Sequence record: NC_136441.1
Length of the DNA stretch: 48,646 nt
Reading direction: 5' to 3' (one strand)
DNA from: a phage
The notes beneath the pieces are model-generated. The model had not been told where the DNA came from. It worked only from the letters and a program-made list of their open reading frames with translations, and searched no databases. Positions 9,319 to 46,594 of the stretch are shown piece by piece. Positions within the stretch are counted from its first letter, which is position 1. Every line of letters begins with the position of its first letter. A program made the translations under genes and the position numbers.

Positions 9319-9332
9319 TAAAGGGGGCTATT

Positions 9333-9995: not shown

Positions 9996-10000
9996 TATTA

Positions 10001-10025: not shown

Positions 10026-10072
10026 TTTGATGTAATATCACCTCAATATTTAACCACTCAGGAGAAATGACA

Positions 10073-26375: not shown

Positions 26376-26420
26376 ATGATAAACCATGCCAGGCTATAAT
26401 TTTTAGCAATCAGTGCTATC
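26376..26420 (-). promoter_or_regulatory. motif promoter (ATAGCACTGATTGCTAA + 22 nt + TATCAT) upstream of primase
   Basis: motif overlaps last codons/stop of HTH gene; -10 sits in loop of hairpin 26366..26394, which is followed by a T-run (also terminator-like). Confidence 0.45.
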
Positions 26421-27011
26421 CATAGTGATGACAACTTTCTTTTTCTGATTGGCTTCCTTTGCTTTCCTGCGTTCTTCTTTCGCCTTGTCTCGTTCAGCCT
26501 TGCGCCGCGCTTTCTCCTTCTCGCGTTCTTCTGGTGGCATTGACCGCAACGGATCGTAAGGCCGCACAAATCCGCGCGCCTCCGCTTCTTCTTTTGTGAC
26601 AAATCGCATGAGCTTTCTGTTGCTGCAACGATTCTCTAATGGCTTGCCGTTGTTGTCAAAGCGCAAATCTGGACGGCAATATGAAGCGCGGAAGCCGTTA
26701 AAACCTTTGCGGCGGTAATCCTTTTGGATCAGTTCAGCGCCTTTAGCTGAAATCATGCCGCGCTCTTTCCATCCCCACACTGTTTTAAGGTTAACGCCAA
26801 TCTCACGCGCCAACGCAGCACAGCCGCCATAAGCGCTAACCACCTCATCAAGCCTCGCTTTTAATCCTGCCCTTACTTCTTCCTTTAGTACCAGATAACC
26901 GCTAACAGGTGCGCGGCGCTTCCGGTCTTTACCACGCCTTACGCCGTTGTTACCATTGATTGTGCGTTTGTCGATTTCGCCCGTTGAGGCCGCAATTTTG
27001 ATTTCGCTCAT
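26403..27011 (-). CDS. helix-turn-helix DNA-binding protein (candidate transcription regulator)
   Basis: 202 aa; HTH-like GGCAALAREIGVNLKTVWGW; highly basic Lys/Arg/Glu C-terminal tail; SD AGGTGA. Confidence 0.5.
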   Translation of the reverse strand: MSEIKIAASTGEIDKRTINGNNGVRRGKDRKRRAPVSGYLVLKEEVRAGLKARLDEVVSAYGGCAALAREIGVNLKTVWGWKERGMISAKGAELIQKDYRRKGFNGFRASYCRPDLRFDNNGKPLENRCSNRKLMRFVTKEEAEARGFVRPYDPLRSMPPEEREKEKARRKAERDKAKEERRKAKEANQKKKVVITMDSTDC

Positions 27012-29074: not shown

Positions 29075-29482
29075 ATGGTTATTGATAAAGGCGATTATCT
29101 GGAGTATTACGACAAGTCAGATCCAGACGATAGGAAGGAGGAATCGCACCAGGTTGATTCTTATTCATGGCTAACATATGAGTTTCCCATGTGGCTTGTT
29201 TGGCACACTAAAAACGAGGGGAAGAAAACCATAGGCACAGCCGTAAAGGATCAGCAAGCGGGTGTGAAGAAGGGAGTTAGCGACATTCTAATCCTGACTG
29301 GTTTTATTGGCTGCAAGTATTCATTTATAGCCATTGAGCTTAAACGCGCCAACAAGAAAGGCACGAAGGTAAGCGACGAACAAAAGGAATTCTTGCGACG
29401 TGTCAGAGAGTGCGGAGGGTTTGCCGCCGTATGCTATGGAGTAGAGCAAGTAAAATTGGCTATCGCAGACGCTACAAAATAG
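29075..29482 (+). CDS. VRR-NUC domain nuclease
   Basis: 135 aa; D...E.K-type core (SDILIL ... IAIELKRA) typical of VRR-NUC; immediately downstream of helicase. Confidence 0.55.
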   Translation: MVIDKGDYLEYYDKSDPDDRKEESHQVDSYSWLTYEFPMWLVWHTKNEGKKTIGTAVKDQQAGVKKGVSDILILTGFIGCKYSFIAIELKRANKKGTKVSDEQKEFLRRVRECGGFAAVCYGVEQVKLAIADATK

Positions 29483-29522
29483 CACTTTTTGTTAAAACAG
29501 GCGCAACGGAATGCGCCATAAT
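29479..29522 (+). promoter_or_regulatory. motif promoter (ATAGCACTTTTTGTTAAAAC + 22 nt + CATAAT)
   Basis: motif overlaps TAG stop of VRR-NUC; spacer hairpin GGCGCA/TGCGCC; upstream of lipoprotein gene. Confidence 0.55.
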
Positions 29523-29553
29523 GCACCCATCAGAACGAAACGGAGAATTAACC

Positions 29554-29832
29554 ATGAAAAAGATGTTATCAGTAGTTGCTTTATCACTTGCTCTTGTCGG
29601 TTGCATGGATAAACCCAAAACATATATTTGCGGAAATGAAGCGTTTGAGGTTACAAGCGAATATATGAAAGTTGTGCAAGGCAAAAGCACAGGCGTTGTA
29701 ATGGATAATATCAGCAAAAATCAATATAAGTTGTTTACGCCAATTGGAACGGCTTTCTACACAGTTAATGAAAACACAATTGATATTAAAGTTGGCGTTT
29801 ATCAGAACACTCTAACTTGCGAGGTAAAATAA
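29554..29832 (+). CDS. small lipoprotein (candidate superinfection-exclusion, Cor/Llp-like)
   Basis: 92 aa; signal peptide with lipobox LVGC; SD GGAGAA. Confidence 0.5.
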   Translation: MKKMLSVVALSLALVGCMDKPKTYICGNEAFEVTSEYMKVVQGKSTGVVMDNISKNQYKLFTPIGTAFYTVNENTIDIKVGVYQNTLTCEVK

Positions 29833-30575: not shown

Positions 30576-30806
30576 ATGAGCATTCGATTAGCCGATCACA
30601 TGAAATGGGATTTATTTGTCGGTATGACAATTCGCTTACTTGATAAGCATGGTTATAACGCTGATAAAATGGAGTTGATAAACTGCCTGGATATGACATT
30701 TGACGAAATCAAAGTTGCGCCTTTGTACATGTGGGAAAGAAAAATTGAGCACGACCTGATACAATACAAACGCAGAGAGGGCGCACGATTTTTCAATGTG
30801 AAATAG
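30576..30806 (+). CDS. hypothetical protein
   Basis: 76 aa, coupled to dam stop; TAG stop embedded in motif. Confidence 0.45.
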   Translation: MSIRLADHMKWDLFVGMTIRLLDKHGYNADKMELINCLDMTFDEIKVAPLYMWERKIEHDLIQYKRREGARFFNVK

Positions 30807-30846
30807 CACTTTTTGTTAAAACCCGCTTCGGCGGGTTTTGTATTAT
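30803..30846 (+). promoter_or_regulatory. motif promoter (ATAGCACTTTTTGTTAAAAC + 22 nt + TATTAT) with terminator-like hairpin in spacer
   Basis: hairpin CCCGC-TTCG-GCGGG plus TTTTGTATT at 30821..30844. Confidence 0.5.
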
Positions 30847-30877: not shown

Positions 30878-31042
30878 ATGAAAATTGTAAACGTCGAATA
30901 CTTCAAAGATGCGCAATGGCTGGCTAAAGAATCATTATTTATGCTTGATCGCAAAAATCCAAAGGTTATTGCACAAATACTTTGGAATGACGCAATGGAG
31001 TTACTTAAAAAGGCTTACGGTTATGAAAGTGACAAAAGGTAA
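30878..31042 (+). CDS. hypothetical protein
   Basis: 54 aa from ATG 30878 with SD AAGAGGA; ORF-track start 30845 lacks SD. Confidence 0.45.
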   Translation: MKIVNVEYFKDAQWLAKESLFMLDRKNPKVIAQILWNDAMELLKKAYGYESDKR

Positions 31043-31265
31043 AAAGGAAACTTGGGAGTTAGCGAAAAAAGGCGGTCTTGATGATGGGATCGCCAAAATA
31101 GCGCAATATTTCGATATTAAAGACGTGTGCGTTATTGTCGGTGATGAAATGGCGTATGTGGATGAAAGGCCGCGACGTGTTCACCGTGTTCCAGCAATAC
31201 CAACTACAATCGACTATAAAGAAGTTATTAACAAAACTAAAGAGCAAAAGAAATATTACAAATGA
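31023..31265 (+). CDS. hypothetical protein
   Basis: 80 aa from ATG 31023, overlapping previous gene end; weak SD. Confidence 0.35.
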   Translation: MKVTKGKKETWELAKKGGLDDGIAKIAQYFDIKDVCVIVGDEMAYVDERPRRVHRVPAIPTTIDYKEVINKTKEQKKYYK

Positions 31266-31349
31266 GATACATTTCTGTTATTTTGTTGCCGCCTGTTATC
31301 GCTTGGGTTATTATGTACGCCGTTGTTATGAATTAAGAGGATGTTAAAC

Positions 31350-32465
31350 ATGAGTTTAAAAAAGATTACCGACGAGCAATTGATCGCTGAACGTGAGGCT
31401 GGTTTAAAACTGCGTGAGATTGCGGAAAAATACGGAATGAGCTTGCGCCAGGTTGAGCACCGACACAGCAAATTGGCTAAACGTGGTGAAATATCAACAA
31501 TCGGATCACCTGGCTTTGCGGTAATTGGTGAATCACAGCTTAAACGTGCAAATGGTGAGGTTGTAATGACCTGGACTAAAACGCACAAAGACAAAGCGCA
31601 ATTAGAGGCAATCATGCAATCAGCTATGGCTGCATTTTCTGACGAATTGCCACGTCTGGAGCCACAGCCGGAAAAGATTGTTGACTACTCGCAAACGCTT
31701 GCGCTATATCCGATCTTTGATATTCACATTGGCGCAATGGCTCATAAGCATGAAAGCGGAGAGAATTACGACACATCAACGGCAGAAAAGATCATGAATG
31801 AATTCTTTGATTATGCCGTCGATAAAGCACCGAATAGCGAAAAAGCTGTATTGCTGATTGGTGGTGATATGATTCACAGTGACGGCCTGGAGGCGGTAAC
31901 ACCTGCAAGCGGCCACGTTTTGGATCAGGATTCGCGATATGCGAAACTTGTTTATGTTGCCATTCGATCCACGCGTCGAGCAGTAAGCAGGATGCTTGAA
32001 AAGCATAAAGAAGTTGAGATCCAGATCATTGAGGGTAATCACGACCAATCAGGAATGATCTGGCTACGTGCTGCAATGGCGGCGGCGTATGAGAATGAGC
32101 CACGCGTAAAGGTTGATGTTTCTCCGCGAGTCGTGCATCACACTCAATATGGTAAAACTTTCCTGGCTTATCATCATGGTCACACTGTACGCAAGCCAGA
32201 AACGCTTTTAATGATGTGTGCAGCGGATTGGCGGGAAGATTTCGGAAACTCCAATTCAATGTATGCGCATGTAGGGCATTGGCATCACCAGACTGTTACA
32301 GAAACGAGCCTTGGCATTGTTGAGGTGCATAGCACTATGGCAGCAAAAGACGCTTACGCCGCGCGTGGTGGCTGGCGTTCACGTCGCAGGGCTGCGATAA
32401 TTATTTATGATAAGGAATATGGCGAAATAGGGCGTTTTATGTTTTACCCTGAAATGATTGCTTAA
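31350..32465 (+). CDS. HTH domain fused to calcineurin-like metallophosphoesterase
   Basis: about 371 aa; N-terminal HTH-like LKLREIAEKYGMSLRQVEHR; phosphoesterase motifs DIHIG, GGDMIH, GNHD, HHGH; ATG 31350 with SD AAGAGG. Confidence 0.6.
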   Translation: MSLKKITDEQLIAEREAGLKLREIAEKYGMSLRQVEHRHSKLAKRGEISTIGSPGFAVIGESQLKRANGEVVMTWTKTHKDKAQLEAIMQSAMAAFSDELPRLEPQPEKIVDYSQTLALYPIFDIHIGAMAHKHESGENYDTSTAEKIMNEFFDYAVDKAPNSEKAVLLIGGDMIHSDGLEAVTPASGHVLDQDSRYAKLVYVAIRSTRRAVSRMLEKHKEVEIQIIEGNHDQSGMIWLRAAMAAAYENEPRVKVDVSPRVVHHTQYGKTFLAYHHGHTVRKPETLLMMCAADWREDFGNSNSMYAHVGHWHHQTVTETSLGIVEVHSTMAAKDAYAARGGWRSRRRAAIIIYDKEYGEIGRFMFYPEMIA

Positions 32466-32482
32466 TTAAATTATCAAGAAAA

Positions 32483-32516
32483 AGGCTGGATAAGTGCTGG
32501 CCTTTTTTTGTTTTTG
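32483..32516 (+). terminator. rho-independent terminator
   Basis: AGGCTGG-ATAAGTG-CTGGCCT (G-U pairs) followed by TTTTTTTGTTTTT. Confidence 0.6.
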
Positions 32517-32576
32517 TGGTTAACATATTCACACTAATTTTGGCATTGACATTTTAATTTAATTGAGGATCAGATT

Positions 32577-32801
32577 ATGAGAGACTTTCTTTTAATGGCG
32601 CAAAACTCTTTCGGAGGTGCAACGGTAGTTGGATCTTTTACTGGTGAGTTTTTGCTTGCACTTGCTACGTTTATTTTGTTCGCTATTTTCGGCTGTTGGG
32701 GCGCATGGCTGAAATGGCGTGATAGTAAAGCGATCCGAGAGGCTTTAGATTCAGGGGATTTAAAAACGGCGCTTAATCTACGGCAGAAAGAGAGGGTGTA
32801 A
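32577..32801 (+). CDS. holin (possible pinholin)
   Basis: 74 aa with Gly/Ala-rich hydrophobic segment then second TM helix and charged C-terminus; first gene of lysis cassette. Confidence 0.55.
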
Positions 32802-33295
32802 TGACAATCAAGAAAGGTATAGCCGCCACCGTCACAGGGGCGGCTTTAATGTTGGCATCGCCTTTGATTGAAGAAATTGAAGGTGTAAAGTATAAGCCTT
32901 ACAAGGATATTGCTGGTATCTGGACTGTATGCCACGGCATCACAGGAAAGGATGTTATTCTTGGAAAGGAATATACCAGGAGAGAATGTGACGCGCTATT
33001 AGCAAAGCATATGAAAGTTGCGGCTGACTCTGTTGATAAGGCGGTTAAGGTTGAAATTCCTTTATCAATGCGAGCGGCTCTATACTCATTTACTTTCAAT
33101 GCTGGTACTGGTGCATTTCGTAAGTCAACCATGCTGAAAAAGATCAACAATGGTGATCTATGGGGCGGTTGTGGCGAGCTTTGGAACTGGACATATTACC
33201 GTAACCCGAAAACGGGCAAAAAGGAAAAATCAAAGGGATTGAAGAATCGCCGCGCTGTTGAATATAAATATTGTGTAATGGATCTGAATAAATGA
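32801..33295 (+). CDS. SAR endolysin (T4 lysozyme-like muramidase)
   Basis: 164 aa; N-terminal signal-anchor-release-like Gly/Ala-rich TM; catalytic E-x8-D-x5-T triad (E...[12 protein letters not shown]); start overlaps holin stop. Confidence 0.75.
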
Positions 33296-33693
33296 AAAGA
33301 AAATTACTGGCTATTATGATGTGCATTGCTCTTTCTGGTTGTTCAGCTTCAAGCGTGTTACCTGGTCTGATTGGTAGCAAGCCTGATATAACGGCACAGG
33401 CTGGAGCGGAGAATGTGAAACAGACTGTTGGTGTAACAGCAAAGCAGGATACATCAAGCAAGCAGGAAACCACATTCAAAGAATCGGCAGTTGGAAAGGT
33501 TGACACGTCGAATAAAAAGCAGGTTAGCACTTCAAGCATTAAGGCAGACAATATAACGGCTGAAAGAATAGAAATACGAAACAGCGAGACGGACACAATA
33601 GGAATGGCGATTGCTTTTTTTGTTGCTGGTGCTATTGCTGGATCTGGAATCACAGCAATATATTCAACAAGGCGTAAAAACAAGGCGGCATAA
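33292..33693 (+). CDS. unimolecular spanin (lipoprotein with C-terminal transmembrane helix)
   Basis: 133 aa; N-terminal lipobox LSGC, Thr/Ser/Lys-rich middle, C-terminal TM ([19 protein letters not shown]) plus basic tail, as in T1-type u-spanin; ATGA overlap with endolysin. Confidence 0.6.
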
Positions 33694-35830: not shown

Positions 35831-35874
35831 ATTATAACGGCAACATTCTACAGCCTTTTAGCAATTCGTGCTAT
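35831..35874 (-). promoter_or_regulatory. motif promoter (ATAGCACGAATTGCTAAAAG + 22 nt + TATAAT)
   Basis: minus strand; motif overlaps TAG stop of 35871..36119; hairpin TTGCCG/CGGCAA with -10 in loop; upstream of ATPase gene. Confidence 0.5.
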
Positions 35875-36119
35875 TTGATCGGCTCAACCCTGGCTAATAA
35901 CTTTCCGTCTATAATGCTATGACATTCAAGAGTTTTAGGATCGAATGCAAGCGAACGATGGAACGTATGACCAATCAGCAAATATGAATGCTTATCCCTG
36001 ATGCGATAGACCGTTTCACCTTCCTTTAATGACGATATCGCACTAAAAACAACCTTGTAACGATATTTTTGCATAGCCTCAGAACGGTGAGGAATGTAAT
36101 CTTTTTCCGGTAAACTCAT
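35871..36119 (-). CDS. hypothetical protein
   Basis: 82 aa, coupled to upstream gene. Confidence 0.45.
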   Translation of the reverse strand: MSLPEKDYIPHRSEAMQKYRYKVVFSAISSLKEGETVYRIRDKHSYLLIGHTFHRSLAFDPKTLECHSIIDGKLLARVEPIK

Positions 36120-36478
36120 GAGTATTTGGCCTCAAACAGATAAGCACCGCCAGCGGCTGAAAATCCAACTTCTTCCCGATACAGCGTGAAACGGTCGCCG
36201 TTTTCGTCGAACACGTATCCAGCAACAGCACCTAACACGCGTCCTTGTTCGATCTGGTAACGCTTATCGGCTTTGAAAGTTTTCTTGATCTGCATGGAGT
36301 GGTTTACCCATGTGCATTTAATGGTTTTGGTCTTAACATTTCGGAATGTTAATCCTGTTAAGTTGGCGTGAATCCATTTCCCATCTAACTTAACGAAAGT
36401 ATCATCATTTTCGTCTACCCGCGCTTTGTATAGGCGGTTATCAGATCCGATAAGTTTGATTGATTTGAATTTAGCCAT
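36116..36478 (-). CDS. hypothetical protein
   Basis: 120 aa, SD AAGGAGA, downstream of motif promoter. Confidence 0.5.
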   Translation of the reverse strand: MAKFKSIKLIGSDNRLYKARVDENDDTFVKLDGKWIHANLTGLTFRNVKTKTIKCTWVNHSMQIKKTFKADKRYQIEQGRVLGAVAGYVFDENGDRFTLYREEVGFSAAGGAYLFEAKYS

Positions 36479-36510
36479 TTGATTTGTCTCCTTTTGTTTT
36501 CGTTGAAAGC

Positions 36511-36554
36511 ATTATGCCGGATACGTGATCCGGCGTTTTAACAAAAAGTGCTAT
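36511..36554 (-). promoter_or_regulatory. motif promoter (ATAGCACTTTTTGTTAAAAC + 22 nt + CATAAT)
   Basis: minus strand; motif overlaps TAG stop of MTase-like gene; hairpin GCCGGAT/ATCCGGC in spacer. Confidence 0.55.
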
Positions 36555-37246
36555 TTCTGATTTGCCAGGCATACAGCAAGCGCAAAGCCGCGCGGAGTGA
36601 GTGAGCGGATCAGCTTTGTTCGCTTAGACTTTCCGCCGAGCTTTTGCCAGCCTGGATTGTTGTTCCCTGTTGGCAATACTGCGTTTGTATCCGGCATCAC
36701 AAAACCGTTACCCGTCCAAAGGCAAGTTTTTTTGGTGTACGCATCGCGAGCAGGAATGATTTCAGGAAAGTGAGGATGATTATCATCTTCCGGCAACAAA
36801 CCGCCAAACGCGCAAGGATGAAATATAAAATCAGGTTGCCGCCACATCGACGACAGGACGCTAACAGGATTCTCGATCATGTATGGAACGTTGAACCAAT
36901 CCGCAATTTCAGCCGCAATCTTGCATGTTGAAACGGCCTTGTCCTGGAATAGCGGATCACGTTCACGCTTTGCGGCAAAGTGACGCGAACCGCTAACAGC
37001 TAAATCAGTGCATGGAGGAAACGCGATCACAAAATCAGGCTTGCCGTAAACCTCATTGCGAGCCTTAAAGCTGAAATCTGAATCAATCCAAACGTTTACA
37101 TACTCAATGTTTTGATGACTTACGCGCACTGAATGGTAATCACCATGATCGGCATCATCATAATTGAAACAGATTACTTTGTGACCACGTTCAGCCCACG
37201 GCAACGCATCATAACCGGAACCGCTAAAAAGAGAAAAAACCAACAT
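36551..37246 (-). CDS. compact DNA cytosine-5 methyltransferase-like protein
   Basis: 231 aa from ATG 37246 (SD AAGGA); motif I-like LFSGSGYD, motif IV-like FPPCTDLAVSG (PCT not PCQ), motif VI-like MIENPVSV; no large target-recognition domain. Confidence 0.45.
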   Translation of the reverse strand: MLVFSLFSGSGYDALPWAERGHKVICFNYDDADHGDYHSVRVSHQNIEYVNVWIDSDFSFKARNEVYGKPDFVIAFPPCTDLAVSGSRHFAAKRERDPLFQDKAVSTCKIAAEIADWFNVPYMIENPVSVLSSMWRQPDFIFHPCAFGGLLPEDDNHPHFPEIIPARDAYTKKTCLWTGNGFVMPDTNAVLPTGNNNPGWQKLGGKSKRTKLIRSLTPRGFALAVCLANQK

Positions 37247-37354
37247 ACTTAAATCCTTTGTGTATGGCCTTGTGAGGCGTTTTGTTTGTAGGTGTGACAA
37301 TCGTATTAGTTACGGCCTGAAATCGCGCCATAATGCGAAACAGGCCGCTATTTT

Positions 37355-37432
37355 TTACTTACAGAATGGGCATGTTGTTTTATCCCCGCTTCCGCCGTGT
37401 TTTGGACAGCAAATTTTTTCGATAGGTGTCAT
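37355..37432 (-). CDS. hypothetical 25-aa zinc-ribbon-like peptide
   Basis: MTPIEKICCPKHGGSGDKTTCPFCK with SD GGAGTA 6 nt upstream. Confidence 0.25.
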   Translation of the reverse strand: MTPIEKICCPKHGGSGDKTTCPFCK

Positions 37433-37444
37433 TTTAAATACTCC

Positions 37445-37687
37445 TTAGAATGGGAAACAACGCTTGCAAGATGGATCGAAGTTACAACCGCAATCATTGA
37501 TTATTGCGTTAGGATCAGCAAGCATCACGCTACTTTCTTGATCCATATCCATAGCGCCTAATGCGTCATCAAGCGTTATTTCAAGATAGGCAACTTTAAG
37601 CGCCCATTCCTTGTTGAGTCCAGCCGCCTCCGCTTCATGTAGGCGAGCAAAGAAAGCATCTTGAACCATATCAACCCCACTTCTCAA
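37445..37687 (-). CDS. hypothetical acidic protein with C-terminal Cys cluster
   Basis: 80 aa, ends CGCNFDPSCKRCFPF. Confidence 0.4.
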   Translation of the reverse strand: MRSGVDMVQDAFFARLHEAEAAGLNKEWALKVAYLEITLDDALGAMDMDQESSVMLADPNAIINDCGCNFDPSCKRCFPF

Positions 37688-37892
37688 TAAACATGCTCAT
37701 TTCGTCAATCATCGCGTAAGCATCGCTTTCAGTCATGCGACGGATTTTTCCGCCTGGGTGTTCGCCAACAGCGTAACCAGTTTTTACGCGGGTAATCGTT
37801 AACTGATGGAATCCAGAAGCGCGATCCATTTTCAAAACTACTTTCCCGTGAGCTTTGACAATGTTCATGATGGATTCAGTTTTCAGTTTCAT
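37671..37892 (-). CDS. hypothetical protein
   Basis: 73 aa downstream of motif promoter. Confidence 0.45.
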   Translation of the reverse strand: MKLKTESIMNIVKAHGKVVLKMDRASGFHQLTITRVKTGYAVGEHPGGKIRRMTESDAYAMIDEMSMFIEKWG

Positions 37893-37923
37893 TTTTGATT
37901 CTCCATTTTGTTTATGTGAAAGT

Positions 37924-37967
37924 ATTATATCAATCAGAGCGATATCGTTTTTAGCAATTCGTGCTAT
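37924..37967 (-). promoter_or_regulatory. motif promoter (ATAGCACGAATTGCTAAAAA + 22 nt + TATAAT)
   Basis: minus strand, upstream of 37671..37892. Confidence 0.5.
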
Positions 37968-38118
37968 TTACGGCGATAAACGGATATCCTGTTAAATCTG
38001 CATTTCTATAACGTGCAGACCTAACCCAACAGCCGCCTTTGCTCATAATTAAAGCGTTTTTATGGCGAATGTTCACGCGGTAAATTCTTCCGGTTTTTAT
38101 GTTTTTGAAATATGTCAT
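37951..38118 (-). CDS. hypothetical 55-aa protein
   Basis: ATGA overlap with upstream gene stop and SD GAGGT; 3' end runs through the motif. Confidence 0.3.
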   Translation of the reverse strand: MTYFKNIKTGRIYRVNIRHKNALIMSKGGCWVRSARYRNADLTGYPFIAVNSTNC

Positions 38119-38348
38119 AATTTAACCTCATGATATTCTATGAATTCTTGCACATATGCGCATTCGCGCGGCGACTCCTGGCCTTTTATCACCTCACAGC
38201 CACCATTAAACAGATAGCAGTGCTGGCAAAGGTTGCCACCTGCGTTTTCCTCAGCGATCTGAATTCCGGTACACAAACCGCCACCAAACCTATGAGGAAA
38301 ATCGTAAGCCTGGCAGCGGCACGTTGCTTGATTCCGCTTACGTTTCAT
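38115..38348 (-). CDS. hypothetical Cys-rich protein (possible zinc binding)
   Basis: 77 aa with 7 Cys including CRC and CQHC pairs. Confidence 0.45.
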   Translation of the reverse strand: MKRKRNQATCRCQAYDFPHRFGGGLCTGIQIAEENAGGNLCQHCYLFNGGCEVIKGQESPRECAYVQEFIEYHEVKL

Positions 38349-38629
38349 TAGATGTTCTCGCTAATAAACTGGATAACCTGGCGAAGATGTTTTTCATCTT
38401 TAATTAATGCTGGCAATTCTTCCATAACTTCTTTTTTAAGATAAATGTTTGCATTCCAGGTGAATGAGCCATCACCATTTACGCGGTAAGAGCAAAGCCA
38501 TTCGCAATCATTATCAGATTCCCAAATGCACAGCGTTTCAAATTCTTCAAACTTGTTGTAACCCGTTTCAATGCTTAACTCAATGCCACGTTTTCCAGCG
38601 AAGTTAGTAGTTGTTTTTGATACCATCAT
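38348..38629 (-). CDS. hypothetical protein
   Basis: 93 aa downstream of motif promoter. Confidence 0.45.
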   Translation of the reverse strand: MMVSKTTTNFAGKRGIELSIETGYNKFEEFETLCIWESDNDCEWLCSYRVNGDGSFTWNANIYLKKEVMEELPALIKDEKHLRQVIQFISENI

Positions 38630-38661
38630 TTTAAAATTCTCCGGTTCGTTTCGATGAATGT

Positions 38662-38705
38662 ATTATGCCAAAACAAACCGGATCGCTTTTAACAAAAAGT
38701 GCTAT
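38662..38705 (-). promoter_or_regulatory. motif promoter (ATAGCACTTTTTGTTAAAAG + 22 nt + CATAAT)
   Basis: minus strand, upstream of 38348..38629. Confidence 0.5.
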
Positions 38706-38807
38706 TTAATTAAAATACGAATACCTTTTCGCACGCTTTCCGTCGCCTCCGTAATGGTCATTAGCAACAGCAAGAATCCAAGCGTTAGGAATAAAAAATA
38801 GCTTCAT
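38706..38807 (-). CDS. hypothetical 33-aa hydrophobic peptide
   Basis: MKLFFIPNAWILAVAN...; SD GGAGAG; start overlaps stop of upstream gene (TAATG). Confidence 0.25.
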   Translation of the reverse strand: MKLFFIPNAWILAVANDHYGGDGKRAKRYSYFN

Positions 38808-39001
38808 TAATCACTCTCCATGATAATTACAGGCTCCATGCGCTCAAGCACCACTTTGAAATCGGAGTAAAAAGTAGGGCGACGTTTTGTCAATTCCTCA
38901 TAGGTATCAGTTGCCAGGCAAGCGCGATCACCTTCATAGCACACAACGCGTTTACCATTTGCGCGACTGATTGCAACTACGCGATATGTATTATTGATCA
39001 T
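38807..39001 (-). CDS. hypothetical protein
   Basis: 64 aa, translationally coupled. Confidence 0.4.
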   Translation of the reverse strand: MINNTYRVVAISRANGKRVVCYEGDRACLATDTYEELTKRRPTFYSDFKVVLERMEPVIIMESD

Positions 39002-39234
39002 TTCATCACCTCAATTGAATAAATACTTTCAACGCCTGGCGCGTATAACCGCTTTCCATCTTCAGTTATGCAAAGACAAAGGGCAAGGCCGCGATTGTCT
39101 GAAATATGCAAGTCATTTTGTCTATCCATCAAAATTTCATATTCGCGATCTTCATCAAAGCGCCAAACGCTTAACATGCACTTTCCAGATGATTTAACTT
39201 TTACTTTCTTTCCGGTGAAATTTAAACGACTCAT
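38998..39234 (-). CDS. hypothetical protein
   Basis: 78 aa, translationally coupled. Confidence 0.4.
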   Translation of the reverse strand: MSRLNFTGKKVKVKSSGKCMLSVWRFDEDREYEILMDRQNDLHISDNRGLALCLCITEDGKRLYAPGVESIYSIEVMK

Positions 39235-39455
39235 TGCGCCACCTCAACAGTTTCAAATACGGTATTGAATGCCAGAAGTTTAAATTTCTTGCCTGGCTCA
39301 ACCACTGCGATATTCCAGGTAATGCCGCCGTGATATGCAACCATATCATCAATATCGACGGTGATTTGTGCGCCCTTCTTGAATAAACCTTTCTCATGAG
39401 TAGCGTCACGTTCAGTAACTACAGTTTCGAATTGCGTTTGTTGTTCAAAGTTCAT
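39231..39455 (-). CDS. hypothetical protein
   Basis: 74 aa from ATG with SD AGGAGA; ORF-track extension to 39596 (TTG) spans the motif promoter and is rejected. Confidence 0.45.
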   Translation of the reverse strand: MNFEQQTQFETVVTERDATHEKGLFKKGAQITVDIDDMVAYHGGITWNIAVVEPGKKFKLLAFNTVFETVEVAQ

Positions 39456-39485
39456 CGTTGATTCTCCTGATTGGTTGATGTGTGC

Positions 39486-39530
39486 ATTATGCCCGGAATC
39501 AGATCCGGCACGTTTAACAAAAAGTGCTAT
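39486..39530 (-). promoter_or_regulatory. motif promoter (ATAGCACTTTTTGTTAAAC + 23 nt + CATAAT)
   Basis: minus strand; hairpin CCGGA/TCCGG in spacer. Confidence 0.5.
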
Positions 39531-39672
39531 TTCAAAACACAGAATGCTCTTGCGTCGTAGGTATGCTTCATAACAATCTCGCGAGCATCCAGGCAACGCG
39601 ATTTGCTATTAAACTCTTGTGTCGTAACCGCCTCACCTTGCATTGTTTGAAGAGCAATAATTAGCACGTAAA

Positions 39673-39891
39673 TCATTTTTCCTTTCCTTCATTGTATGTA
39701 AGGTTAATGTGAATTGATGCACTTCCGACAATTTCAGCGGTTCCAATCTCAACCATGTATATCAATTCATGGCGGCTAAATGATGTGTACGCAGGGAAGC
39801 CGTCAACAATGCGCATAACCGGAAGTTCACTGTATTTTGTGTTAGGCACTGCGTATTCATTGCCAGTGCTCTTGATGCGTATGAGTATCAT
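39673..39891 (-). CDS. hypothetical protein
   Basis: 72 aa, coupled to upstream gene. Confidence 0.45.
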   Translation of the reverse strand: MILIRIKSTGNEYAVPNTKYSELPVMRIVDGFPAYTSFSRHELIYMVEIGTAEIVGSASIHINLTYNEGKEK

Positions 39892-39905
39892 TGTTCTATC
39901 TCCAG

Positions 39906-40157
39906 TTACTTAGTAAGCCATTCCACACATTTAATGATGCACTCACCCTGTGAGCCGTAAAAAACACTTATCCCTTTCTGGCAGATTGTCCAGGTGCGAG
40001 ATCCCTTTGCGGTCTGCCTTACTTCAATCTGTAAGCCGCCACGCACCATGCATTTGAAAGCGCCAACCTTCTTACCTTTGCGCTTAGTGGTGTAATAGTC
40101 AGTTACCGTGATGCCTTTGTCAGTTGCCAGGTCAATCGCTTGTTGGATAGTTGCCAC
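39906..40157 (-). CDS. hypothetical protein
   Basis: 83 aa from GTG 40157 with SD AGGGGA; ORF-track TTG start 40199 is upstream of the predicted transcription start. Confidence 0.4.
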   Translation of the reverse strand: MATIQQAIDLATDKGITVTDYYTTKRKGKKVGAFKCMVRGGLQIEVRQTAKGSRTWTICQKGISVFYGSQGECIIKCVEWLTK

Positions 40158-40187
40158 TTTAAAATCCCCTGTCGTTTCGATGTGGTT

Positions 40188-40231
40188 ACTATATCGCAAC
40201 CCCTGAATCGAGTTTTAACAAAAAGTGCTAT
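40188..40231 (-). promoter_or_regulatory. motif promoter (ATAGCACTTTTTGTTAAAAC + 22 nt + TATAGT)
   Basis: minus strand; palindromic TCGAT...ATCGA and GGTT/AACC around the -10. Confidence 0.5.
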
Positions 40232-40341
40232 TTACCAGTAATGATGATCTTCATTTCCGAAGTGCTTACTGATGAATTGAGCAATCAAAATAAGCACATA
40301 TAATACAATAACCAACGTGAATAATTTTAATAAGAAGCAAA

Positions 40342-40524
40342 TCATTTCTTTAATACTGAAAAGTAATAAGGATTTGACAATCCGTGTTTGCGAGCAATTT
40401 TTTCAGCCTCAACAGCGCCAACAATTGATGCCAATATCTCTACGCTATCCTTTCTATCTGTCATATCGGCAGAGTTAGCAAGGTTGATTTGAAAAAACGC
40501 AATCGGATCTTGTGTGAAGTGCAT
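40342..40524 (-). CDS. hypothetical protein
   Basis: 60 aa, SD GGAGAT, first gene of minus-strand early block. Confidence 0.4.
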   Translation of the reverse strand: MHFTQDPIAFFQINLANSADMTDRKDSVEILASIVGAVEAEKIARKHGLSNPYYFSVLKK

Positions 40525-40554
40525 TGTTTTATCTCCAGTTGTTTAGATGTGCTC

Positions 40555-40599
40555 AATGTAGCGCATTCGTTTTGATTGGTTTTAACAAAAAGTGCTATT
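40555..40599 (-). promoter_or_regulatory. motif promoter (ATAGCACTTTTTGTTAAAAC + 22 nt + TACATT)
   Basis: minus strand, first promoter of the leftward early block. Confidence 0.5.
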
Positions 40600-42225: not shown

Positions 42226-42269
42226 ATAGCACTTTTTGTTAAAACTCGATTGGGGTAGTTTGGCATAAT
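42226..42269 (+). promoter_or_regulatory. motif promoter (ATAGCACTTTTTGTTAAAAC + 22 nt + CATAAT)
   Basis: long hairpin TCGATTGGGGTA/TACCCCATCGA with -10 in loop; upstream of 42308. Confidence 0.55.
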
Positions 42270-42307
42270 TACCCCATCGAAACGAAACGCACTAACAGGA
42301 GAACATC

Positions 42308-42496
42308 ATGAAATTATTAGGAAAACTTAACGCTAGCTCTTTGGTAATTGGTGACTTGATTGAGGTGGCTGGATCTTTATCGGTGGTGACTAGCGTTTTT
42401 GTTGATGGGGTAAAGGTGATAATTGAGACCGACAAGCTGCACCCATTCGAGCTTTGCTGTCTTGATGAAATTAAAGTTTATTCATCATTTAACTAA
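42308..42496 (+). CDS. hypothetical protein
   Basis: 62 aa, SD AGGAGAA. Confidence 0.45.
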   Translation: MKLLGKLNASSLVIGDLIEVAGSLSVVTSVFVDGVKVIIETDKLHPFELCCLDEIKVYSSFN

Positions 42497-42501
42497 CTGG
42501 A

Positions 42502-42545
42502 AAAGCACGAATTGCTAAAAAATAATCCTGGGCTTGCGGTATAGT
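42502..42545 (+). promoter_or_regulatory. motif promoter, variant (AAAGCACGAATTGCTAAAAA + 22 nt + TATAGT)
   Basis: hairpin GGGCTT/AAGCCC around -10; upstream of 42578. Confidence 0.5.
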
Positions 42546-42577
42546 AAGCCCATACCAAACAACGAGAGGATCACAAA

Positions 42578-42977
42578 ATGAAATTAGCACGTAACGCGGT
42601 TTATGGCTTACACCTTAATAAAGGCGGCAAAGGCTCAACTTATGCACACCTTTTTCATGTTAATGAGCGCGGTCAAATTGATATTGCAATGTATGTTGAC
42701 AAACTGGTTAAAGGTTGTGAGTCCAACAAGTTCAGACCAGATCTGATTGAATACGATCACACACACAGTCACGACCACTGGTTAGGTGGTTAAAGGTTGT
42801 GAGTCCAACAAGTTCAGACCAGATCTGATTGAATACGATCACACACACAGTCACGACCACTGGTTAGGTGGTTATAAATTTACAATGCTGGATAGCCATG
42901 TTATTGACACAAGAAAATTAACGAATCGTGACTATAGGCGCATGGCTCGAAAAATCCTGAGGCAGAAAGCGCAATAG
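42578..42977 (+). pseudogene. early gene split by a perfect 82-bp tandem duplication (fragments 42578..42793 and 42786..42977)
   Basis: two ORFs share a 28-aa overlap (VKGCESNKFRPDLIEYDHTHSHDHWLGG); removing one 82-bp copy restores a single 106-codon ORF. Confidence 0.55.
42705..42868 (+). repeat. perfect 82-bp tandem duplication (2 copies) flanked by TGGTTA microhomology
   Basis: 42705..42786 is identical to 42787..42868; next 6 nt (42869..42874) repeat the unit start. Confidence 0.9.
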
Positions 42978-43017
42978 CACGAAATGTTAAGCGGCCATGT
43001 GTGCTGATTGGTACAAT
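42974..43017 (+). promoter_or_regulatory. motif promoter, variant (ATAGCACGAAATGTTAAG + 22 nt + TACAAT)
   Basis: motif overlaps TAG stop; upstream of small ORF 43050. Confidence 0.45.
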
Positions 43018-43049
43018 GACCGCATCAACCAATAGGAGAGGATAGAAAA

Positions 43050-43157
43050 ATGTCAAAAGAATCAATTAAGCAGTTTCTGAAATACGGCTCTATGATTGTG
43101 CTCGCTACCGTTGTGCTGGCTGGCATAGCTTACAGTGTCATTGAATTTGTGGGGTAA
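43050..43157 (+). CDS. hypothetical 35-aa membrane peptide
   Basis: SD GGAGAGGA; MSKESIKQFLKYGSMIVLATVVLAGIAYSVIEFVG. Confidence 0.35.
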   Translation: MSKESIKQFLKYGSMIVLATVVLAGIAYSVIEFVG

Positions 43158-43160
43158 TGG

Positions 43161-43724
43161 ATGTTTAAGATCGAATTGTGGGGCAAGGAATACACTAATC
43201 ACTACGTTGCAACAAAACAGCGTTTCGTTATTTTCGACTTGGACGGCACATTGTCAAATGGTGAGCACCGCTTACACCTGTTGCCAACTGTTGACTTGCA
43301 CCTTACTGAAAGCTGGAGTGAGTTTAATCGCGCCGCAAAGGATGATTTACCATTCATGGATAACATATCCGTGTGCAACGCCATGTTTGACGCCGGATAC
43401 CTGGTTATCATCCTAACAGGACGTAGTGATGAAGTTGAGGCAGAAACGCGAGCATGGTTAGCTGAAAACGGCGTTTCTTTCGATTGGCTGATTATGCGCC
43501 GCGCGGAGGACAACCGGAAAGATACCGTGATCAAAGAGGAAGTTTTACGGACTATCGGACTTGATCGCATTGTCGCATGTTGGGATGACTCACCAAACGT
43601 TATTGCACACCTGCGCGGCCTGGGCTTGACTGTTTACCAGGTCATTGACTACGGCGAGCAGTTACACGATCACTTAAAATCTCACGGCGTGGAGGAATTG
43701 AGCGATGACAGCAAAGCTAATTGA
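43161..43724 (+). CDS. HAD-superfamily phosphatase (polynucleotide 3'-phosphatase-like)
   Basis: 187 aa; HAD motif I FDLDGTL, motif II ILTGR, motif IV WDDSPN. Confidence 0.6.
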   Translation: MFKIELWGKEYTNHYVATKQRFVIFDLDGTLSNGEHRLHLLPTVDLHLTESWSEFNRAAKDDLPFMDNISVCNAMFDAGYLVIILTGRSDEVEAETRAWLAENGVSFDWLIMRRAEDNRKDTVIKEEVLRTIGLDRIVACWDDSPNVIAHLRGLGLTVYQVIDYGEQLHDHLKSHGVEELSDDSKAN

Positions 43725-43893
43725 AGATCGGCATGGTGATAACGTGCTTATTTACATCGAAGGGAAATCGGTGTGGATTGACTGCAAATATGAGGATGAC
43801 ACACATTTGCAGTTTCGCGGAATCTTTGACAAGAAAGGCGCGTTAGAGTTAGCGGAGCACATCAAGCGGCTTGCGGAAGAATTACCGGAATAG
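43705..43893 (+). CDS. hypothetical acidic protein
   Basis: 62 aa overlapping upstream gene end. Confidence 0.4.
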   Translation: MTAKLIEDRHGDNVLIYIEGKSVWIDCKYEDDTHLQFRGIFDKKGALELAEHIKRLAEELPE

Positions 43894-43903
43894 AGGATTT
43901 ATT

Positions 43904-44089
43904 ATGTTGACTTTTATCTTGATCGCTATCGTTTTAATTCTGTATGTTTGCGGCGCTTTCCTGATGCGAGCGCTACTAAAAGAGGCTGACGCTGATGATA
44001 AGGATAGTTGGAAGCCGATTCTTTTATGGCCTTGTTATATCATCGTGCCAATTTACGAGCTAATCCGCGATGGTGAGTTTAAATGGTAA
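43904..44089 (+). CDS. hypothetical membrane protein
   Basis: 61 aa from ATG 43904; N-terminal TM helix. Confidence 0.4.
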   Translation: MLTFILIAIVLILYVCGAFLMRALLKEADADDKDSWKPILLWPCYIIVPIYELIRDGEFKW

Positions 44090-44133
44090 ATAGCACTTTT
44101 TGCTAAAACTTGCTAAGGCACATTTGATAAAGT
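44090..44133 (+). promoter_or_regulatory. motif promoter (ATAGCACTTTTTGCTAAAAC + 22 nt + TAAAGT)
   Basis: hairpin GGCACA/TGTGCC; upstream of 44167. Confidence 0.5.
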
Positions 44134-44166
44134 GTGCCTTGTCGAGACAAGCAAGGAGAATGACTA

Positions 44167-44421
44167 ATGAAACATTACAGGTGCGGAAGTCTTATTTATC
44201 GTGACGATGGGGTTAATATTTTTGTTGCCTATTATGACAAGATGGAATTTTTTGAATCCATTTACACAAGGCGCGTTTTTAATTCAATGGTTGATGCTGG
44301 ACTTATGAAAGAGTGCGAGCCACCAAAAGCGAAGCCGTTTTATAAAAATGTTGATTTCTGGCATAACGCCGTATTAATCACAATTCTGTTAATTCTTTCT
44401 ATGTGGTTTATTTTCTTATGA
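44167..44421 (+). CDS. hypothetical protein with C-terminal TM helix
   Basis: 84 aa, SD AAGGAGAA. Confidence 0.45.
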   Translation: MKHYRCGSLIYRDDGVNIFVAYYDKMEFFESIYTRRVFNSMVDAGLMKECEPPKAKPFYKNVDFWHNAVLITILLILSMWFIFL

Positions 44422-44600
44422 TGCTTGATAATAAAGTTGAAACACAAAAGACGATCAACTATCTGCGAGCGCTTGCTGATGCTCTTGATTCCGGCGAGGC
44501 AGCATTAAATGATGTTAGTATTGAGTCAAGAAATCACGGATGGACTCAGATCGAAGAAACATTAACCGTTCAATATTTTAAGGTGAATAAAGATGGCTAA
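44403..44600 (+). CDS. hypothetical protein
   Basis: 65-aa ORF overlapping neighbours; start uncertain. Confidence 0.35.
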   Translation: MVYFLMMLDNKVETQKTINYLRALADALDSGEAALNDVSIESRNHGWTQIEETLTVQYFKVNKDG

Positions 44601-45168
44601 AATTATAATCCTCAATGCGCCTCCTGGTGCTGGTAAAGACACGATAGGCAAGATGATTTCTGTCTATTCGCCTGGTAAGCAATGCCGAATCATTAGCTTT
44701 AAAGAGCCAATGTTTGATATTGCATTAGCTATCCTGGGCAAAGAGAACTATAAGCGTTTCATGCTGGCTTACGATGACAGAGAGCAGAAAGAAAGGCCGC
44801 AAACGTTCCTGATGGGTATGTCACCGCGCGAGTTCATGATCTGGATTAGCGAGGATGTGATCAAGCCTAAATTCGGTAAGGATTATTTCGGCGTAAGGTT
44901 TAATCAGAAAGTAAAAGAGTGTGATGCTCCTGTTGTTTGCACTGATGGCGGTTTTCCAGATGAAATTATAGCGCTAATCAATGCTGGTAATGAGGTGAAG
45001 TTATGCCGCTTGCATCGCGAAGGGTTCACGTTTGCAGGTGATAGCCGCAACTACATTCGAATCAATCCCTATTACCAGAAAAACGGATATAGCGAGCACG
45101 ATTATAAATTGGTTGATAAGCAACCGAATGTAACTGTAAAGGAAATTATTCGCGATCACCTTAAATAG
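44593..45168 (+). CDS. P-loop nucleotide kinase (dNMP kinase-like)
   Basis: 191 aa; N-terminal P-loop ILNAPPGAGKDT, resembling the GxxxSGKDT pattern of phage dNMP kinases. Confidence 0.5.
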   Translation: MAKIIILNAPPGAGKDTIGKMISVYSPGKQCRIISFKEPMFDIALAILGKENYKRFMLAYDDREQKERPQTFLMGMSPREFMIWISEDVIKPKFGKDYFGVRFNQKVKECDAPVVCTDGGFPDEIIALINAGNEVKLCRLHREGFTFAGDSRNYIRINPYYQKNGYSEHDYKLVDKQPNVTVKEIIRDHLK

Positions 45169-45208
45169 CACGAATTGCTAAAACTTGCGCAAGGCCATTT
45201 GTTATAGT
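45165..45208 (+). promoter_or_regulatory. motif promoter, variant (ATAGCACGAATTGCTAAAAC + 22 nt + TATAGT)
   Basis: motif overlaps TAG stop of kinase gene; hairpin AAGGCCA/TGGCCTT. Confidence 0.5.
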
Positions 45209-45248
45209 GGCCTTATTCAAGAGAAGCAACCAATCAGAGGAATAAGCG

Positions 45249-45446
45249 ATGAAAATTAAATGCACAAAATCAAACACCATGAATCTGACAGTTGGCGCGA
45301 TTTACCATATGGAAGAAGGTGTAAACGGGTTTAGCCCAACTGTAACGCATGAATACGGCGGTCACTTCTTCTTAAACGGTAAAGACGGATTATCTGTAAA
45401 CGTTGGCTCTTTCGTACTGGCAGAATTTGAGGTCGTGGAGGAATAA
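45249..45446 (+). CDS. hypothetical protein
   Basis: 65 aa, SD AGAGGAA. Confidence 0.45.
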   Translation: MKIKCTKSNTMNLTVGAIYHMEEGVNGFSPTVTHEYGGHFFLNGKDGLSVNVGSFVLAEFEVVEE

Positions 45447-45448
45447 AA

Positions 45449-45613
45449 ATGTTTTGGATTCATTCGCCGCAAGGGTTGCTTTATGTGCCTGGCGTTGAAT
45501 TTGAAGAACGACGCGACGGCGACACGGTAAACATCATAACGAAGGATTCAAAAGGCCACACTCTTAAAACGTATGTTTTTAACACTCCGGTTAAGGTCGA
45601 AAAAGATGATTAG
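45449..45613 (+). CDS. hypothetical 54-aa protein
   Basis: ATG 45449 with SD GGAGGA inside end of upstream gene. Confidence 0.35.
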   Translation: MFWIHSPQGLLYVPGVEFEERRDGDTVNIITKDSKGHTLKTYVFNTPVKVEKDD

Positions 45614-45788
45614 ATTTATTGGTTTTGTGGCATTGCTTATGTGCGGAATATTGCTTACTGATAATGACACTTGGCAAAGCGCTGTTGGCGGTTTACTTAT
45701 TTTTCTTGCAGGTGGCATGGTTGGCAGTGATGACGCAGCAAACAAGAATAAACTTTCCGATCATTTACGCAGAGAGACAAAACGATGA
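45606..45788 (+). CDS. hypothetical membrane protein
   Basis: 60 aa from ATG 45606; two hydrophobic segments. Confidence 0.4.
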   Translation: MIRFIGFVALLMCGILLTDNDTWQSAVGGLLIFLAGGMVGSDDAANKNKLSDHLRRETKR

Positions 45789-46030
45789 ATAGAAAAATGC
45801 TGGTACGCGCATTCGCAAAGATTGCTAAAAGATGGGGTGATTCAGCTAAAACACCTTACACGTTTAGTATGTACGGTTACAAGAATGCTCGCGCCTGGGG
45901 TCGCTGCATTGCGGATAACTACAACTCCGAAATTCTGGAAGATTTCGCAAGCTGGATTGATACGCCGCTAAATGAATGGGGCCAGGCTGAATATGATTGT
46001 TTTGCTGATGAAGAAATTTCTTGCTGGTAA
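45785..46030 (+). CDS. hypothetical protein
   Basis: 81 aa, ATGA overlap. Confidence 0.45.
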   Translation: MNRKMLVRAFAKIAKRWGDSAKTPYTFSMYGYKNARAWGRCIADNYNSEILEDFASWIDTPLNEWGQAEYDCFADEEISCW

Positions 46031-46041
46031 GGAGAATTAAC

Positions 46042-46554
46042 ATGATCGCTAAAAATGACCTTTGCAACCTGTTAACTGCTGGTAATGATTATCAGGTTTT
46101 GAATAGTACAGAAGACCGTTACTTTATTGAGTGTGACAATGGTGATCGCATGTGGATTAAAAAAGGATTTTTCGAAAGCGAGCACCTAAGCAATGCAAAG
46201 CGGATCGCAGATGAAGCAAGCGCATTAGCAGAGCGTGAACGAATTCGCGATATAGTAGCGGATCAGGTTAGAAATTCTTGTTTGCCTGGTGGCGATATCT
46301 TCAAATCAATGCGCGGTGAAATGACGGTTGGAATTCAAGATCGAGTAATTGAAAAATCAGTTGATTATGTAATTGAGAATGCGAAATTCAATGCGTTGAT
46401 TGACTCAGAGCATAACGAATACGTCAAAGTATTAGAGCAACTGCGTGAAGTGCTGCGAGTGCCGGAAGGTAAAAACATAGTGACACATGCAAAGGTTGTA
46501 AGAGCGCTTGCTGATGCTTTACTTGACGTTTATCCAGGAATGAAGTGCAAATAG
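46042..46554 (+). CDS. hypothetical protein
   Basis: 170 aa from ATG 46042 with SD AAGGAGA. Confidence 0.5.
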   Translation: MIAKNDLCNLLTAGNDYQVLNSTEDRYFIECDNGDRMWIKKGFFESEHLSNAKRIADEASALAERERIRDIVADQVRNSCLPGGDIFKSMRGEMTVGIQDRVIEKSVDYVIENAKFNALIDSEHNEYVKVLEQLREVLRVPEGKNIVTHAKVVRALADALLDVYPGMKCK

Positions 46555-46594
46555 CACTTTTTGTTAAAACTTCCGCGAGGGCATTTGTTAAAGT
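46551..46594 (+). promoter_or_regulatory. motif promoter (ATAGCACTTTTTGTTAAAAC + 22 nt + TAAAGT)
   Basis: motif overlaps TAG stop; hairpin GAGGGCA/TGTCCTC. Confidence 0.5.

Follow-up and report, generated by a model that had tools for sequence, protein, structure and literature searches.

The stretch of phage DNA considered here (NC_136441.1, 48,646 nucleotides, hereafter the window) comes from a Tlsvirus (Drexlerviridae), a T1-like siphophage, and encodes a 371-residue protein in which an N-terminal helix-turn-helix (HTH) domain is joined to a binuclear metallophosphoesterase (MPE) domain. The HTH-MPE protein is read, tentatively and with slightly less than even confidence, as a DNA-directed nuclease. 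It would be a binuclear MPE of the Mre11 or PolD-DP1-like nuclease type, held on nucleic acid by the basic HTH and a conserved beta-hairpin, and its MPE site would cleave DNA phosphodiester bonds in the infected cell, exo- or endonucleolytically, in a metal-dependent reaction (probably with Mn2+) and without an ATPase partner of the Rad50/SbcC type. Host DNA would thereby be broken into nucleotides that are then handled by a deoxynucleoside monophosphate (dNMP) kinase and a HAD phosphatase of the phage; alternatively, the enzyme may act on DNA ends and on intermediates of replication and recombination. Host-DNA degradation specifically is given about half the credence of nuclease activity as such, and the DNA substrate, the metal, DNA binding by the HTH, the biological role and the expression class are all presumptive.

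The catalytic domain carries most of this reading. The active site agrees across three alignments, one of 22 close homologues, one of 59 cluster representatives with identities falling to ~30% and one of 70 mixed sequences: each shows D124, H126, D173, N230, H231, H276 and H312 without exception, and H278 and H310 vary little or not at all. The five-motif set of the MPE superfamily is thus complete (D124-H126, G172-D173, G229-N230-H231-D232, H276/H278 and G309-H310-x-H312), a match that, judged from the sequence, lies far beyond chance. The first-pass annotation of this DNA had listed DIHIG, GGDMIH, GNHD and HHGH, all of which are present and in register, and had left out the fifth motif, GHWHH. 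Motif II GDxxH and motif I DxHxG resemble those of Mre11/SbcD. As the ligand residues are invariant, selection appears to keep the protein an active binuclear phosphoesterase. The Pfam models recover little of this, with Metallophos scoring the window protein below its gathering score (E 0.027, 15.4 bits versus a cut-off of 21.5), PF00149 reaching E<0.01 in only 10 of the 59 relatives (best 5.8e-5) and PF12850 matching 9 of them, because the family is too divergent for those models.

The fold was assigned by structure prediction. A first AlphaFold model built on the 22 close homologues (pLDDT 67) gave insignificant and scattered Foldseek matches in the PDB and was discarded, and the final model, built on the 70-sequence alignment (pLDDT 86.4, pTM 0.75), folds into an alpha/beta sandwich that spans residue 114 to the C terminus, with the four-layer beta-sandwich MPE fold present. 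The best fold scores were obtained with the PolD DP1 proofreading exonuclease (5ihe, 14.7), Mre11 (3qg5, 14.7) and SbcD (7dog, 14.6), followed by MJ0936 (14.1), the Pol delta B-subunit (13.4), LpxH (13.3), further Mre11 structures (12-13), Rv0805 (12.2) and GpdQ (12.0). This ranking makes the fold unambiguously MPE with a leaning to the nuclease branch, the lead of the nucleases over small-molecule phosphodiesterases being small. A profile search of PDB sequences returned generic HTH matches only and no solved relative of the MPE part.

The same data bear on a Ser/Thr/Tyr protein phosphatase like lambda NinI (PP-lambda), one of the activities offered in the first-pass annotation. Such an enzyme would share the MPE fold, and temperate relatives do carry the gene in a nin-like early-right region. 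However, the PPP signatures GDxHG, GDxVDRG and GNHE are absent, the window protein having DIHIG, GGDMIH and GNHD instead, no Pfam or NCBIfam PPP model matches, and PPP protein phosphatases reach fold scores of only 8.7-8.8. A protein phosphatase is therefore very unlikely and was rejected on motifs and fold scores, whereas the nuclease, likewise among the activities offered, is favoured because the top folds are DP1, Mre11 and SbcD and because the neighbouring genes come from nucleic-acid and nucleotide metabolism.

The N-terminal segment was described at first pass as HTH-like, and the relatives together with the model bear this out. In the window protein itself, the Pfam search suggested at that stage leaves the HTH, like the MPE domain, below threshold (HTH_23, E 0.018), with an alignment to the winged HTH of a PDB entry, IscR (E 0.003), and a weak match to ECF-sigma region 4 (E 0.009). 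The HTH is clear among the 59 relatives, in which Sigma70_r4_2 (in 9, best 1.5e-9) and GerE (2.4e-8) are the commonest matches, and HTH_28 (5e-6), HTH_1, HTH_23, HTH_50 and HTH_8 are found as well. The AlphaFold model contains three bundled helices (residues 8-16, 21-28 and 32-44; pLDDT 80-91 over residues 11-40), the second and third separated by a turn, followed by a beta-hairpin with strands 56-65 and 71-80 and then a helix at 82-98; the hairpin could act as a 'wing' or could link the HTH to the catalytic domain. The N-terminal domain is basic (isoelectric point (pI) 9.6), in contrast to the slightly acidic catalytic domain (pI 6.4). Conservation is higher in the hairpin than in the HTH itself, mean pairwise identity is 41% for the MPE domain versus 22% for the HTH, and the recognition helix is weakly conserved across the family alignments. 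A paralogous HTH, which mimicry of a DNA-binding domain would predict, was looked for elsewhere in the window and not found. The first-pass annotation had named as fatal to its idea an N-terminus without a DNA-binding fold on a mere SbcD/Mre11-type nuclease; the searches returned neither.

Fusion of the two domains had been called unusual, which it is not. The family profile phrog_704 ('DNA repair exonuclease') aligns with the window protein along its entire length (E 2.8e-149, residues 4-370 on profile positions 2-389 of 390), and HTH, hairpin and MPE together are the architecture of this whole family, for which an exhaustive HMMER scan recovered 4600 representatives of 50%-identity clusters at E<=1e-3, 999 of them at <=1e-30, most being 370-420 aa long with an N-terminal extension. 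By tblastn the family occurs in 2031 of 50,697 phage records (~4%), including phages of Escherichia, Klebsiella, Salmonella, Vibrio, Campylobacter, Flavobacterium and Rhodobacter and one cyanophage; Jersey-like and Dhillonvirus phages and prophages of E. coli and Pseudomonas carry it as well, and a fold search of BFVD gave dozens of phage proteins with the same fold. HTH plus MPE is thus the rule rather than the exception in a family that is very large and already catalogued, and the HTH-MPE family ranks among the more widespread phage proteins of only predicted function. Deposited names range from 'DNA repair exonuclease', 'phosphoesterase' and 'putative phosphoesterase' to 'oxidoreductase', 'DNA polymerase II' and 'winged helix-turn-helix domain-containing protein'; the T1 ortholog ST16 is a 'DNA repair exonuclease' in RefSeq. 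These names are predictions, and the domain composition is already reflected in them.

The window gene is an ordinary, nearly identical copy of this annotated and widely distributed phage gene. Positions 31000-33300 share 92-96% DNA identity with Citrobacter phages BSwS KMM3, Stevie and Sazh, Escherichia phages LL5 and U136B and others, and at the protein level the best match reaches 98% identity. The ATG at 31350, where the annotation of Stevie starts gp37 'phosphoesterase', is a likelier start than another in-frame ATG at 31341. Compared with the phrog_704 family, T1 gp16 and Stevie gp37, the window gene has the same position upstream of the holin, endolysin and spanin genes, matches over its full length and differs in nothing material.

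Two GenBank records were encountered beside these relatives, OR786094.1 'Streptococcus phage MBBL140' (host S. agalactiae), 95-98% identical to the window phage, and MG065680.1 'Campylobacter phage A113', 79% identical to it; both probably bear wrong host labels or represent T1-like contaminants.

Gene neighbourhoods were sampled at 86 loci in 23 sequence groups, with 3 to 5 genes on either side. The family has no universal neighbour in this sample. A dNMP kinase and a holin share first place among the annotated neighbours, each being present in 4 of 23 groups, a HAD-type 'polynucleotide kinase/phosphatase' and a FEN-type exonuclease occur in 2 groups each, and holin with endolysin (in T1-like groups) and HNH homing endonucleases also recur. 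Webervirus-like phages have the order MPE, HAD, dNMP kinase, as does an unrelated group with an MPE of 41% identity. A published survey reported the gene as persistent in 508 of 522 Drexlerviridae, beside the lysis cassette, with a polynucleotide kinase and a dNMP kinase as the commonest genes directly downstream (PMC13164509). The HAD protein encoded in the window is a possible pathway partner because its counterparts lie directly downstream of the MPE gene in other T1-like and in unrelated groups, and the dNMP kinase because of its tied first place among the neighbours.

In lambdoid and other relatives the surroundings are different again. An E. coli lambdoid prophage (GCA_005390225.1, locus 7977-10559) carries a 65%-identical homologue in a replication module equivalent to lambda O/P, flanked by an initiator-like HTH_36 gene on one side and a DnaB-type helicase gene on the other and lying upstream of ninB, with a T5orf172/zinc-ribbon gene separating the HTH_36 gene from the homologue. 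In a P. aeruginosa prophage the MPE gene ends the nin-like region, at a nin/Q-like position before the lysis genes, and in the Jersey-like Salmonella phage BPS11T2 (6759-9143) the member lies in a plus-strand island between minus-strand tail genes.

The neighbours are also compatible with an end-healing enzyme, that is, a 2',3'-cyclic phosphodiesterase or 3'-phosphatase which, with a HAD phosphatase and a P-loop kinase, would mend the damage that defence nucleases of the host inflict on tRNA or DNA. The phosphatase domain of bacterial Pnkp is indeed a binuclear MPE, and several groups show the order MPE, HAD 'polynucleotide kinase' (phrog_415, E 2.7e-68), P-loop kinase. Against this, the P-loop protein matches a dNMP kinase (phrog_139, E 9e-49) and not a polynucleotide kinase, no ligase gene lies nearby in the neighbourhoods sampled, the MPE, HAD and kinase genes are dispersed in the window, and the HTH is left without explanation, so that end healing is given only slight credence.

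Another use of the same chemistry would be a small-molecule phosphodiesterase or pyrophosphatase acting in phage-host conflict, which degrades a second messenger, a nucleotide danger signal or a nucleotide pool (for example a cyclic oligonucleotide, a cyclic nucleoside monophosphate, m6-dAMP, NAD+ or a deoxynucleoside diphosphate), the HTH serving autoregulation or localisation. In the Metis and PUA-Cal-HAD conflict systems, calcineurin-like domains hydrolyse NAD+ or dADP; small phosphodiesterases score nearly as high in the fold comparison as the nucleases do, the MPE gene often adjoins HAD phosphatase and nucleotide kinase genes, and the Jersey-like island is an accessory one with Imm_superinfect and ANT genes. 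Typical anti-defence genes, however, are variable, unlike this persistent core gene of the Drexlerviridae, nucleases remain the top fold neighbours, and a conserved domain of DNA-binding type has no obvious role in an enzyme of soluble metabolites. In addition, no PADLOC defence model matches the window protein or three diverse relatives, and literature searches gave no phage anti-signalling enzyme of MPE fold. A small-molecule enzyme is thus considered unlikely, the degrader of second messengers offered in the first-pass annotation being neither backed nor contradicted by these data.

The transcriptional context of the gene centres on a repeated palindrome. The 19-nt element ATAGCAC-N4-TG(C/T)TAAAA, whose core TAGCA-N5-TGCTA is an inverted repeat, occurs in 21 copies in the window, versus 0.48 expected, and in 21 copies in phage T1; it is annotated as a repeat_region in Stevie. 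Each copy is followed at a fixed distance, ~22 nt downstream, by a -10-like hexamer, and examples lie at 25265, 27022, 29479, 30803, 35856-40598 (minus strand) and 42226-46569 (plus strand). By its sequence the element is a putative promoter and has the appearance of a phage-specific promoter/operator recognised by a dimeric HTH protein. One copy heads the unit that holds the HTH-MPE gene and two small upstream open reading frames (ORFs), the second of which (phrog_2817) is a conserved -1/-2 neighbour of the MPE gene in several T1-like groups. Because of this copy, the HTH-MPE gene probably shares its promoter class with the replication and early genes, and because a terminator-like hairpin precedes the holin gene, co-transcription with the lysis genes would not be obvious.

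These features raise the case for a transcription regulator, whose HTH would bind the TAGCA-N5-TG(C/T)TA element or dock on RNA polymerase through a fold like sigma region 4. Early transcription would thereby be switched off, or the lysis genes timed, and the MPE would be a sensor or supply an accessory activity. The sigma-like and GerE-like HTH matches described above, the 21 palindromes that occupy promoter-like positions in the window, with 21 more in T1, the location just ahead of the lysis cassette in T1-like phages and at a nin/Q-like position in the Pseudomonas prophage, and a reported interaction of the phage T5 protein A1 with RNA polymerase all fit such a role. The strongest conservation, though, falls on the catalytic residues rather than on the HTH, members of the family agree poorly in the recognition helix, and a separate lambda-repressor-like regulator encoded in the window is a simpler candidate for the repeats. 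Regulation as the main function is accordingly judged improbable.

The nuclease reading is backed by the invariant active site, the family-wide HTH, the kinase, HAD and exonuclease neighbours, the place of the homologue beside initiator-like and helicase genes in the E. coli prophage, the persistence in Drexlerviridae and the parallel with T5 A1 described below. Indirect support for breakdown of DNA to mononucleotides by T1-like phages comes from Bas12 (T1-like, Tunavirinae), which is restricted by PUA-Cal-HAD, a system triggered by m6-dAMP from chromosome degradation (bioRxiv 10.64898/2026.01.15.699771). Several observations weigh on the other side. The dNMP kinase and HAD genes lie 11 kb from the MPE gene in the window, and the neighbour contexts are heterogeneous across groups. 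The BPS11T2 island, which also holds an Imm_superinfect gene and a pRha/ANT antirepressor gene, is moron-like and unlike the T1-like context. Temperate phages also carry the family, and such phages are said not typically to degrade host DNA. Literature searches for a functional study of the T1-like protein, for the genetics of host-DNA degradation in T1 and for anti-defence MPEs with an HTH gave annotation-level mentions only. In classical genetics the T1 function for host-DNA degradation was placed at 'gene 2.5', which serves here as a lead and not as evidence.

Table 1. Features of the HTH-MPE gene and of other loci discussed, in window coordinates unless given as residues
Feature	Position	Strand	Remarks
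HTH-MPE gene	31350..32465	+	371 aa + stop; ortholog of T1 ST16/gp16 and Stevie gp37; phrog_704 member
Shine-Dalgarno AAGAGGA	31335..31341	+	8 nt before the ATG of the HTH-MPE gene, read from the sequence
Basic tri-helical HTH domain, N-terminal	31350..31493	+	aa 1-48, pI 9.6
Long conserved beta-hairpin	31509..31592	+	aa 54-81; S62, G69 and W75 invariant or nearly so
Binuclear MPE domain	31689..32462	+	aa 114-371
Motif I DIHIG	31719-31733	+	aa 124-128
Motif II GGDMIH	31860-31877	+	aa 171-176
Motif III GNHD	32034-32045	+	aa 229-232
Motif IV HHGH	32172-32183	+	aa 275-278
Motif V GHWHH	32274-32288	+	aa 309-313; canonical fifth motif
Family-specific conserved loop HSDG..TPxSGHxLDxDxR	aa 176-199	+	low-confidence region in the model
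Palindromic element ATAGCAC-N4-TGTTAAAA	30803..30821	+	core TAGCA-N5-TGTTA; heads the unit with the HTH-MPE gene
Terminator-like hairpin of the upstream unit	30817..30840	+	consensus scan; annotated terminator in Stevie
-10-like TATTAT	30841-30846	+	downstream of the element at 30803-30821
Small upstream ORF, phrog_2180	30878..31042	+	54 aa; in the HTH-MPE transcription unit
Small upstream ORF, phrog_2817	31023..31265	+	80 aa; in the HTH-MPE unit
Intrinsic-terminator-like hairpin closing the HTH-MPE unit	32477..32509	+	just before the lysis cassette
Lysis cassette, holin	32577-32801		downstream of the hairpin at 32477-32509
Lysis cassette, endolysin	32801-33295		downstream of the hairpin at 32477-32509
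Lysis cassette, u-spanin	33292-33693		downstream of the hairpin at 32477-32509
Lambda-repressor-like regulator	26403-27011		separate gene in the window
HAD-type 'polynucleotide kinase/phosphatase'	43161..43724	+	phrog_415 homologue; 71% identical to a Webervirus protein
dNMP kinase	44593..45168	+	phrog_139 homologue

Three further features of the window were recorded. Within 30801-30846 the terminator of the upstream unit lies inside the spacer between the palindromic element and TATTAT, so that terminator and next promoter overlap. The end of a VRR-NUC endonuclease gene of the replication module is overlapped by a small lipoprotein-like ORF that matches phrog_7420 and, weakly, the Cor superinfection-exclusion protein (29410-29832, likely start near 29557, MKKMLSVVALSLALVGC...). 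Upstream of the HAD phosphatase gene, 42705-42868 consists of two identical copies of an 82-bp sequence, a perfect tandem duplication that could be real or an assembly artefact.

Among known phosphoesterases, Mre11/SbcD (including gp47 of phage T4 and D13 of T5) shares 12-19% sequence identity with the window protein, which has an N-terminal HTH instead of the C-terminal capping domain and ends with the MPE core. No Rad50/SbcC ATPase partner was found in the neighbourhoods of the 23 groups or in that of the window gene, and of the curated SbcD/Mre11 models only TIGR00024 (SbcD-related archaeal) responds, at E 0.1 and 12 bits versus a cut-off of 115. The archaeal PolD small subunit DP1, a 3'-5' proofreading exonuclease, is 14% identical; a partner like its DP2 catalytic subunit was not seen in the neighbourhoods examined, and the gene lists of T1-like phages contain no DNA polymerase gene. 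MJ0936/YfcE, LpxH, Rv0805/CpdA and the 'nuclease MPE' PdeM all lack HTH and hairpin, and none is a phage family; the small MPE phosphodiesterases act on small substrates, and PdeM acts on single-stranded DNA.

The closest functional parallel is offered by phage T5. Its A1 protein, a predicted metallophosphatase structurally like double-strand-break-repair nucleases and polymerase proofreading subunits, was reported to be necessary and sufficient for degradation of the host chromosome. In second-step DNA transfer A1 is joined by A2, a DNA-binding protein, and dmp, which encodes a dNMP phosphatase, is located near A1 on the first-step-transfer DNA (bioRxiv 10.64898/2026.04.02.716235). A1 and the window MPE have the same nuclease-type fold neighbours, and both are combined with a DNA-binding function, which in T5 resides in A2 as a separate protein and in the window protein is predicted for the same chain. 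A1 is otherwise different in its length of 556 aa, with a long extra N-terminal half, and in being the product of a pre-early gene needed for second-step transfer, a step that T1-like phages do not have. Relatives of A1 outside the Demerecviridae (~530 aa, 45-48% identical to A1) carry N-terminal HTH_23, HTH_38, HTH_7 or CENP-B_N domains, so the combination of HTH and MPE recurs in the A1 lineage.

Profile comparison sets a limit to this parallel and also weighs against the preferred reading. With hhalign, the window family aligns to A1 only over a local 22-column match at motif III (E 8e-4, probability 25%), and direct homology to A1 is not demonstrable on that basis; a permissive, forced alignment of 217 columns (probability 46%) brings the C-terminal strand into register together with motifs III-V. 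Homology to A2 was likewise discarded, with no meaningful match (E 0.062, probability 0.9%). What is claimed is therefore a functional analogy to A1/A2 and not membership of the A1 family.

Should the HTH-MPE protein break down host DNA in T1-like phages, the source of nucleotide danger signals such as m6-dAMP that trigger bacterial immunity would be identified, the function placed at T1 'gene 2.5' might be recognised in it, and a tractable one-protein model would be at hand for how a phage nuclease attacks host DNA yet spares unmodified phage DNA, a question raised for T5 A1. A more far-reaching combination, to which only a small probability is assigned as a whole, is a single-chain A1/A2 in which the HTH, resembling sigma region 4 and LuxR, addresses the nuclease by recognising the phage's own 21 promoter elements or RNA polymerase, while the host chromosome is destroyed; transcription shut-off and self/non-self discrimination would then be coupled to that destruction, and the fast-evolving HTH would re-target a conserved nuclease across lineages. 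By analogy with T5, the window protein plausibly works like A1/A2 and would represent their counterpart in one polypeptide, joining the MPE of host-DNA degradation (A1) to the DNA binder (A2).

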